A stretch of DNA of 213 bases from Escherichia coli (GTDB lineage: Bacteria; Pseudomonadota; Gammaproteobacteria; Enterobacterales; Enterobacteriaceae). The notes beneath the pieces were generated by a model that was not told where the DNA came from, did no database searches, and saw only the letters and a list, made by a program, of their open reading frames with translations. The stretch lies in assembly GCF_003334405.1 (NCBI RefSeq), contig NZ_QOWM01000078.1; one strand, written 5' to 3'. Shown here in pieces: positions 7 to 213 of the stretch. A program made the position numbers and the translations under genes. Numbering within the stretch: position 1 is the first letter of the stretch; each line of letters begins with the position of its first letter.

Positions 7-83
7 TGGTGCATCCGGGAGGATTCGAACCTCCGACCGCTCGGTTCGTAGCCGAGTACTCTATCCAGCTGAGCTACGGATGC
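7..83 (-). tRNA. tRNA-Arg (anticodon ACG), intact, 77 nt, CCA encoded; enterobacterial argQ/argZ/argY/argV type
   Basis: Reverse complement of 7-83 reads GCATCCGTAGCTCAGCTGGATAGAGTACTCGGCTACGAACCGAGCGGTCGGAGGTTCGAATCCTCCCGGATGCACCA. It folds as a canonical cloverleaf: acceptor GCATCCG/CGGATGC, D-stem GCTC/GAGT, anticodon stem CTCGG/CCGAG with loop CTACGAA (anticodon ACG = plus 47-49 cgt), T-stem GGAGG/CCTCC with loop TTCGAAT, discriminator A, CCA at plus 7-9. I recognise it as the E. coli-type tRNA-Arg(ACG) from memory; which paralog cannot be decided from the window. Confidence 0.93.
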
Positions 84-146
84 ATCGGGAAAACTTATTC
101 TACTGCTGATATTGATACCGCTACTAAAGCCATATCAATTAAGAGA
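84..146 (-). other. 63-bp AT-rich spacer between the 5' end of the intact tRNA and the upstream tRNA 3' fragment; probable tRNA-operon spacer or leader
   Basis: About one third G+C by hand count. No structural RNA fold or long open frame. It sits exactly between the tRNA 5' end (83) and the CCA-encoding end of the fragment (147), as a spacer between tandem tRNA genes would. Confidence 0.55.
111..139. repeat. 7-bp inverted repeat ATTGATA (111-117) / TATCAAT (133-139) with 15-nt spacing inside the spacer
   Basis: Reverse complement of 133-139 (tatcaat) equals 111-117 (attgata). There is also an adjacent TGATA-T-TGATA direct duplication at 107-117. Short arms in AT-rich DNA, so chance occurrence is plausible. 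Confidence 0.3.
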
Positions 147-165
147 TGGTGCATCCGGGAGGATT
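147..165 (-). repeat. Truncated 3'-terminal 19 nt of tRNA-Arg(ACG), a direct repeat of 7-25; candidate att core of an integration junction, or a tRNA gene remnant
   Basis: Plus 147-165 (tggtgcatccgggaggatt) is identical to plus 7-25; identity is 20 nt if the matching base just past the CCA (6 vs 146) is included. On the minus strand it encodes AATCCTCCCGGATGCACCA. Identity ends at 165/166 (a at 166 vs c at 26), inside the T-loop. Upstream on the minus strand (166 onward) there is no 5' T-stem, anticodon arm or D-arm, so this is not a second functional tRNA. Confidence 0.8.
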
Positions 166-192
166 ACTCGCCTTGCGGCTCGCCCTTCGGGC

Positions 193-208
193 CGTTGCTA
201 AAGCAACG
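193..208. repeat. Perfect 6-bp inverted repeat with 4-nt loop (cgttgc-taaa-gcaacg); potential hairpin
   Basis: 193-198 cgttgc pairs with 203-208 gcaacg around loop taaa (199-202). It is not followed by a T-tract on the plus strand or an A-tract on the minus strand, so it is not a canonical intrinsic terminator. Confidence 0.4.
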
Positions 209-213
209 TTATC

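Follow-up and report, generated by a model that had tools for sequence, protein, structure and literature searches.

A covarying sense-strand RNA hairpin in the transcribed spacers between tandem tRNA-Arg genes of Enterobacteriaceae

In many polycistronic tRNA transcripts of E. coli, processing is started by RNase E, which cuts 1–3 nt after the CCA end (PMC2190699). The enzyme requires accessible single-stranded segments (PMC4191395), and cleavage is efficient where such segments lie adjacent to a structured unit bound in its duplex-binding groove, a task in which a simple stem-loop can replace the tRNA as the activating unit (PMC9841416). For the serV-argV-argY-argZ-argQ operon, whose four tandem identical genes supply tRNA-Arg2, a literature search returned no cleavage map, end-mapping, mutant, Northern or probing data, and in the searchable literature nothing was found on the dismantling of this precursor or on the structure or function of its arg spacers.

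We analyzed a stretch of 213 nt from E. coli (the window), which is matched in every complete E. coli genome at a median of 3 places, lying under tRNA-Arg features. Its sole gene is argQ, identified by ARAGORN and Rfam in agreement with the RefSeq annotation. In K-12, the array sits between csrA and yqaB and reads on the transcribed strand serV, argV, an RtT-like element, spacer, argY, spacer, argZ, an RtT-like element, spacer, argQ and a further RtT-like element, with the window corresponding to the argQ end. Because one promoter-like site was detected upstream of serV and scans of the operon strand and the window revealed no promoter- or terminator-like sites inside the tRNA array, the pattern is consistent with a single precursor transcript. 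An earlier annotation made from the letters alone (hereafter the sequence-only reading) had placed the region of interest in a tRNA spacer, which is correct for the side facing argQ, whereas the opposite side is bordered by an RtT-like element and not by a second tRNA gene. An Rfam match to “Plastid-ycf2 5'UTR” at window positions 9–83 of the plus strand (33.4 bits, gathering score 65.7) recurs antisense to each tRNA-Arg; it stays below the gathering score and is a tRNA-derived false positive. Coordinates of all features are compiled in Table 1.

Table 1 Features of the window and parts of the spacer hairpin (window positions; hairpin parts are listed 5' to 3' on the transcript)
Feature	Position	Strand	Description
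tRNA-Arg(ACG) gene argQ	7..83	-	ARAGORN; Rfam tRNA 67.1 bits; RefSeq; last tRNA of the serV-argV-argY-argZ-argQ operon
Upstream spacer of argQ	84–146		63 nt; nucleotide k of the transcribed spacer = window position 147-k
5' leader of argQ (GAAUAAGUUUUCCCGAU)	84..100	-	ends in U at -1
Conserved single-stranded motif AUCAGCAGUA	101..110	-	directly 3' of the hairpin; holds the second TGATA copy (107–111, + strand)
RNA hairpin of the transcribed spacer	111..139	-	fold, covariation, strand test
Hairpin 5' arm	139->128
Hairpin loop	127->123		UUAGU
Hairpin 3' arm	122->111
Pair	139-111		A-U, lineage-specific
Pairs	138-112 through 133-117		Watson-Crick
Pair	132·118		U·G
Mismatch	131·119		G·G
Pairs	130-120, 129-121, 128-122		Watson-Crick
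Conserved single-stranded segment UCUCUUA	140..146	-	between CCA end (147) and hairpin
3' part of RtT-like element	147..213	-	Rfam RF00391 46.4 bits within window; context, outside hairpin

The spacer carries ATTGATA at 111–117 and TATCAAT at 133–139, which are exact reverse complements of 7 bp as the sequence-only reading had described, and TGATATTGATA at 107–117 is exactly the TGATA-T-TGATA duplication that it had reported. Dinucleotide shuffling of the spacer produced a perfect inverted repeat of at least 7 bp with a loop of 3–25 nt 269 times in 5000 (p ~0.054), shuffling of the whole window did so 1049 times in 5000 (0.21), and a 5-mer duplicated within 3 nt was obtained in 954 of 5000 (0.19). 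By themselves, the inverted repeat and the duplication are no better than chance, and these frequencies justify the caution about short arms, AT-rich sequence and weak evidence with which they had been introduced. Pairing continues inward from the arms, giving an imperfect stem of 12 pairs, 111–122 with 128–139, closed by a 5-nt loop. Folded in isolation as RNA of the transcribed strand, the 35-nt hairpin reaches -12.9 kcal/mol (z = -5.4), and it persists when the whole window is folded. The spacer folds at -13.0 kcal/mol on the transcribed strand compared with -9.5 kcal/mol on the opposite one, because the mismatch between positions 132 and 118 is a U·G pair on the former.

The outermost A-U pair (139-111) occurs in two of 56 aligned orthologous or paralogous spacers among the loci listed, and the exact 39-mer spanning 106–144 in 1567 of 5426 complete E. 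coli genomes. This leaves 112–122 paired with 128–138 as the conserved stem, and the exact seven-pair version is a polymorphism of the K-12 lineage. With one to four places per E. coli genome, all chromosomal and without any plasmid copy, the 39-mer does not qualify as a dispersed extragenic repeat of the REP/BIME or ERIC type. In the transcript, the two copies of the duplication correspond to the UAUCA of the 3' arm (117–113) and to the UAUCA of the single-stranded segment that follows (111–107). The former varies and covaries with its partner, the latter lies within a near-invariant AUC-nGnAGUAA motif, and neither the argY spacer nor Enterobacter-type spacers retain the duplication. The duplication is a chance meeting of two differently constrained elements and no feature in itself.

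Species-representative genomes were surveyed for a tRNA-Arg 3' end followed by 45–75 nt and a tRNA-Arg 5' end, yielding at least 120 loci; the loci listed, together with K-12, contributed 186 spacers, and the 171 distinct ones were analyzed. In the 108 distinct Enterobacteriaceae spacers among the loci listed, covering 24 genus labels, the mean energy of the best hairpin is -9.8 kcal/mol compared with -4.8 kcal/mol in dinucleotide shuffles, and -8 kcal/mol or better is attained by 83% of these spacers versus 18% of shuffles in alignment-free minimum free energy calculations. Hairpins start at a median of 7 nt after the CCA end (interquartile range 6–9) in the listed Enterobacteriaceae spacers, 88 of the 108 having a -8 kcal/mol hairpin within 14 nt of CCA. 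These 88 hairpins comprise 80 distinct sequences and form 13 clusters at 70% identity, with stems of the type TTGATAYGGCT/AGCGRTATCAA in Escherichia, Salmonella and Citrobacter, TTCATATTGCTT/AAGTGATATGAA in Enterobacter and Lelliottia, TCAGTGTTGC/GTGACATTGA in Atlantibacter and Siccibacter, and AACAATGCTGAAG/CTTCAATATTGTT in Cedecea. None of the 31 Erwiniaceae spacers listed reaches -8 kcal/mol, as compared with 10% of their shuffles, and hairpins of this stability are rare among the listed Pectobacteriaceae spacers, most of which have none. The hairpin is a gain or loss at the family level. Erwiniaceae and most Pectobacteriaceae spacers, located between the same tRNA-Arg genes, are shorter (45–57 nt) and hairpin-less and keep the spacer ends (UUCU... 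and ...UUUCCCGAU). An Enterobacteriaceae-type tRNA-Arg spacer on a contig with the label Chryseobacterium sp. 18061 is near-identical to the one in Citrobacter sp. 18056, which belongs to the same project; contamination or mislabelling is the probable cause. Rfam 15 returned chance-level matches only over positions 101–146 (mir-2187 with 14 bits, E = 8.5; E up to 10) and none at gathering score over the spacers of 13 orthologous loci.

Covariation was scored against the K-12 stem in a sequence-only MAFFT alignment of 61 spacers among the loci listed, made with no structure input. In this alignment, 81.5% of cells are paired, compared with 27–54% when the 3' partners are slid by one to three columns, and double, compensatory changes are present at 10 of 12 pairs. 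Window pair 136-114, for instance, is G-C in 44 sequences, C-G in 10, U-A in two and A-U in one, and pair 132-118 is U-A in 27, C-G in 16 and U·G in 10. In 500 shuffles, neither the pairing nor the covariation score of the real alignment was ever attained, a figure that, like the other shuffle-based statistics, overstates independence, as the sequences are phylogenetically related and the paralogues evolve in concert. RNAalifold independently predicts the same helix. A covariance model built from the MAFFT alignment aligned 113 matches among the loci listed (100 distinct, divergent stem types included), in which 90.1% of cells are paired versus 27–51% after sliding, and 144 cells carry double changes versus 48±6 in shuffles; this alignment is fitted to the structure and serves as corroboration only. 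The compensatory substitutions that characterize a conserved structured cis-acting RNA element are hence found in an alignment unfitted to structure. The sequence-only reading had made its stem depend on whether orthologous tRNA-Arg spacers keep the arms or show compensatory changes, and the outcome is positive, with many double substitutions across Enterobacteriaceae. The alignments indicate that a spacer hairpin of 11 conserved pairs is kept in this family by selection for pairing and not for sequence.

On which strand the pairing resides was assessed with a strand-symmetric stem finder that treats both G·U and A·C as mismatches. Across the spacers listed, internal positions on the tRNA-sense strand comprise 52 G·U versus 12 A·C; 15 genera have more G·U than A·C, and none among the loci listed shows the reverse. 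Counts in fixed columns agree (55 G·U versus 17 A·C), and folding across the spacers listed favours the sense over the antisense strand. G·U is thus tolerated on the transcribed strand and A·C is not, as in conserved structured cis-acting RNA elements, and because G·U outnumbers A·C on the tRNA-sense strand, selection is taken to act on sense-strand RNA and not on a DNA palindrome. We put the probability that the feature is a selected sense-strand RNA hairpin at about 0.9. The suggestion of a stem in a polycistronic tRNA precursor gains support from both lines of evidence, the double substitutions across Enterobacteriaceae and the wobble asymmetry that places the stem on the transcribed strand.

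The sequence-only reading had also offered a binding site for a dimeric DNA-binding protein. This explanation, or an internal sigma-70 promoter driving the downstream tRNA (TTGATA-N15-TATCAAT), draws on the perfect 7-bp palindrome in K-12 and on the likeness of its arms to -35 and -10 hexamers. A protein site would conserve its half-sites, but the arm sequences vary (GATA, CATA, GTGT, CCTG and others) through the 13 clusters while complementarity is kept, and the G·U positions, being mismatches in DNA, break the palindrome. The promoter scan gave no site in the window or the spacers, the hexamers are 15 nt apart instead of 16–18, and they are unconserved across genera, so that a DNA-level function is barely credible. 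An intrinsic terminator or attenuator was rejected as well: neither the window nor the operon strand has a terminator-like site, and on the transcript the stem is followed by AAUAUCAGCAG instead of a U tract. Inspection by eye gave no convincing match to an ArgR box, a CsrA GGA loop or Hfq (ARN)n motifs.

Complementarity could also arise without function, if a neutral quasi-palindrome were produced by templated (intrastrand) mutation and spread by gene conversion. The weak single-sequence statistics and the near-identity of the paralogous spacers within one genome are in line with such an origin. Templated correction yields Watson-Crick palindromes that are symmetric between strands, however, an expectation at odds with 52 G·U against 12 A·C on the sense strand. 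The hairpin moreover holds the same position through 13 unrelated clusters and 24 genus labels among the loci listed, and different hairpin types coexist inside one operon. We regard a neutral origin as highly improbable, and like the DNA-level readings it is disfavoured relative to a selected RNA hairpin.

The sequences flanking the hairpin are conserved in a way that the hairpin itself is not: its loop sequence is not conserved and its stem sequence is variable, while position and flanks are kept. In the MAFFT alignment of 61 spacers among the loci listed, T3, T5, T6 and A7 of the segment between CCA and hairpin are near-invariant. The motif 3' of the hairpin has invariant columns T38, G41, A43 and T45 (numbering of the first sequence; window positions 109, 106, 104 and 102), and in the structure-fitted alignment it is aligned in every stem type. 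A leader ending in ...UUUCCCGAU is common to most Enterobacterales spacers among the loci listed. Since loop and stem vary while position and flanks are conserved, a role as structural guide is suggested; this pattern, in which the helix may have any sequence but keeps its distance from CCA, points to a structural function of the hairpin, with recognized sequences residing in the flanks. As separate observations, AUC-nGnAGUAA directly 3' of the hairpin is near-invariant in Enterobacteriaceae, and a tandem AGCAGUAA-AGCAGUAA is present in several genera. A possible closing helix, CUUAC/GUAAG, could enclose hairpin and conserved motif by pairing window positions ~139–143 with 90–94 (alignment columns 6–10 with 55–59). 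Its cells are paired to 78.5%, and a few double changes are seen (C-G 28 and A-U 7 at one pair), but it was rejected as a conserved part, being absent in the second commonest (TCAGTGTTGC-type) stem and weak in K-12.

The RtT-like element adjoining the spacer at 147–213 ends in a copy of the last 19 nt of tRNA-Arg (147–165, AAUCCUCCCGGAUGCACCA) present as a direct repeat, and positions 166–213 fold into three short G+C-rich hairpins within the whole window. A second tRNA gene at 147–213 was ruled out, as the sequence beyond the 19-nt copy is not tRNA. The RF00391 match covers the 3' half of the model in truncated mode (46.4 bits, gathering score 45), and the full arg RtT-like copies of K-12 score 29–31 bits, below gathering. 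This match spans 147–213 only and ends at 147, so that the hairpin at 111–139 is not part of RtT. RtT-like copies lie at positions 1647–1781 and 2062–2195 of locus L001. Elements of the arg, lys and tyr operons share a common core (GATAACGTTGC..GCAACGGCCCGnAGGGCGAG..CGAGT), followed by the 3' end of the preceding tRNA, and are inserted exactly after CCA. This arrangement looks like an insertion with target-site duplication. A segment upstream in the element pairs with the copied half of the T-arm, GGGAUGAU/AAUCCUCCC in arg and AGGAU/AUCCU in lys. The arg copies are unannotated in RefSeq, whereas those after tyrT, tyrV, lysV and lysQ are annotated. RtT-like inserts vary between genera in count and position, whereas the hairpin spacer does not change. 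The arg array holds two inserts in E. coli, Citrobacter koseri and others and none in Salmonella enterica subsp. arizonae, where four tRNA-Arg genes are separated by three short spacers. The hairpin spacer also follows complete tRNA genes, as between argY and argZ and in all three Salmonella arizonae spacers.

What the hairpin might do is best framed by RNase E-type processing of the serV-argVYZQ precursor, a function that we propose tentatively and to which we assign an even chance or somewhat less. A hairpin in each internal transcribed spacer, 6–9 nt downstream of CCA in the preceding tRNA or RtT-like pseudo-3' end, would split the ~62-nt spacer in two, leaving on either side a short single-stranded window of conserved sequence, UCUCUUAC directly behind CCA and AUC-nGCAGUAA...UUUCCCGAU ahead of the next tRNA. 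The helix would provide RNase E with a duplex for its structure-binding groove and position the enzyme on 140–146 and perhaps on 84–110. Cuts near CCA and in the leader would then separate the four identical tRNA-Arg units, and RNase P together with 3' exonucleases would finish the ends. In view of the RNase E findings in PMC2190699 and PMC9841416, the segment 140–146, directly 3' of where the upstream tRNA or pseudo-tRNA ends, is a candidate endonucleolytic cleavage site. The hairpin, its position, its covariation and its strand are observed; that a nuclease uses it, and which nuclease this would be, we infer. What fits the RNase E-guide model is geometry only, namely the flanking segments and the distance of the hairpin from CCA. 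Since the Erwiniaceae (0 of 31 listed) and most Pectobacteriaceae are without it, the hairpin is not generally needed to separate tandem tRNA-Arg genes. A stable hairpin 6–9 nt after CCA would also impede 3' exonucleolytic trimming, and its benefit is non-obvious.

Conservation of pairing and position without conservation of stem and loop sequence also speaks for a passive structural insulator, which would shorten unstructured untranslated RNA as a precaution against Rho loading, or prevent mispairing of spacer and identical tRNA halves during co-transcriptional folding, with no nuclease recognition involved. The 5' strand of a unit is complementary to the acceptor 3' strand of the preceding unit, a pairing that RNAalifold predicts when flanks are included. 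However, the spacer is not C-rich, hairpin-less Erwiniaceae spacers of similar length work, and the strong sequence conservation of the single-stranded flanks is left unexplained, so that we consider passive insulation improbable.

A further explanation regards the hairpin as an exonuclease barrier that stabilizes an excised spacer fragment, three per transcript, which would soak up small RNAs or Hfq in trans as a sponge or decoy. The motif 3' of the hairpin (AUC-nGCAGUAA, followed by AAGCAGUAA in many genera) is as conserved as the hairpin position and resembles GAAGUAAAGCAGUAC of the E. coli metZWV spacers, which co-purify with RybB and MicF (PMC4583644) and weakly bind the distal face of Hfq (PMC10710024), and stable hairpins are able to block 3' exonucleases (PMC10100675). 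The resemblance is short, however, and was judged without statistics, and the second motif copy is degenerate in E. coli K-12 (AAUAAGU / AAUAAAU). Moreover, the hairpin lies on the 5' side of the motif and would offer it no shield against 3' exonucleases, and the literature contained no pull-down, CLIP or RIL-seq evidence for arg spacers. A barrier function of this kind is unlikely in our view, and its specific form, in which the hairpin and the AUC-nGCAGUAA tail would be excised as a discrete exonuclease-resistant small RNA, three per serV-argVYZQ transcript, titrating Hfq or sRNAs like the metZWV spacers, is a long shot. If true, the output of a growth-rate-controlled tRNA operon would feed into post-transcriptional regulation, an addition that would be specific to Enterobacteriaceae because Erwiniaceae are without the hairpin.

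Under the preferred reading of a selected RNA hairpin with a putative processing role, a hairpin at a fixed distance from CCA offers a mutable handle on how RNase E and RNase P select where to cut in tandem arrays of identical tRNAs, and Enterobacteriaceae with the hairpin and Erwiniaceae without it provide a natural comparison. The hairpin represents an uncatalogued structured element, absent from Rfam, in one of the best-studied genomes. Structured elements of transcribed spacers are a familiar category and none of the papers found mentions the arg hairpin; the finding is modest and introduces no new principle.

Among described systems, the RNase E-activating structures (PMC9841416) likewise place a helix between short single-stranded segments of a polycistronic tRNA precursor; there, too, the identity of the helix is unimportant, to the point that a terminator hairpin can stand in for a tRNA, and its position relative to the CCA-proximal cut matters. 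In the operons of that study (glyVXY, argX-hisR-leuT-proM and metT), the structured unit is the neighbouring tRNA, whereas the arg spacer has a dedicated extra hairpin. The sponge spacers of metZ-metW-metV and the leuZ 3' trailer (PMC4583644, PMC5222698, PMC10710024) compare with the arg spacers as spacer RNA of identical tandem tRNA genes present in several copies per transcript, and a AGUAAAGCAGUA-like single-stranded motif is common to the metZWV and arg spacers. In contrast to the latter, metZWV spacers are 33 nt long and unstructured (dG 0 to -0.7), and sRNA and Hfq binding is reported for them, the arg spacers being likened by motif alone. RtT elements (RF00391; tyrT, lysT and valU operons) are repeated, co-transcribed tRNA-operon sequences that adjoin the spacer at 147–213, but the hairpin is outside the RtT match and is present in S. 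arizonae, which has no RtT-like copy. With REP-type barriers to 3' exonucleases the hairpin shares the property of a stable extragenic stem-loop within a transcript; REPs, however, are dispersed in hundreds of copies with conserved sequence, whereas the arg hairpin belongs to this operon only and is variable in sequence. When the spacers between adjacent E. coli tRNA genes were folded, those of leuQPV and metZWV were unstructured without a hairpin, while the glyV-glyX-glyY and valU-valX spacers and the spacers after the pseudo-CCA in the lysT operon form a small stem-loop 0–11 nt after CCA or pseudo-CCA in K-12, similar to the arg spacers. These have ~5 pairs and -4 to -7 kcal/mol, compared with 11–12 pairs and -13 kcal/mol for the arg hairpin, which is the longest in this set and, as the one assessed for covariation, covaries.
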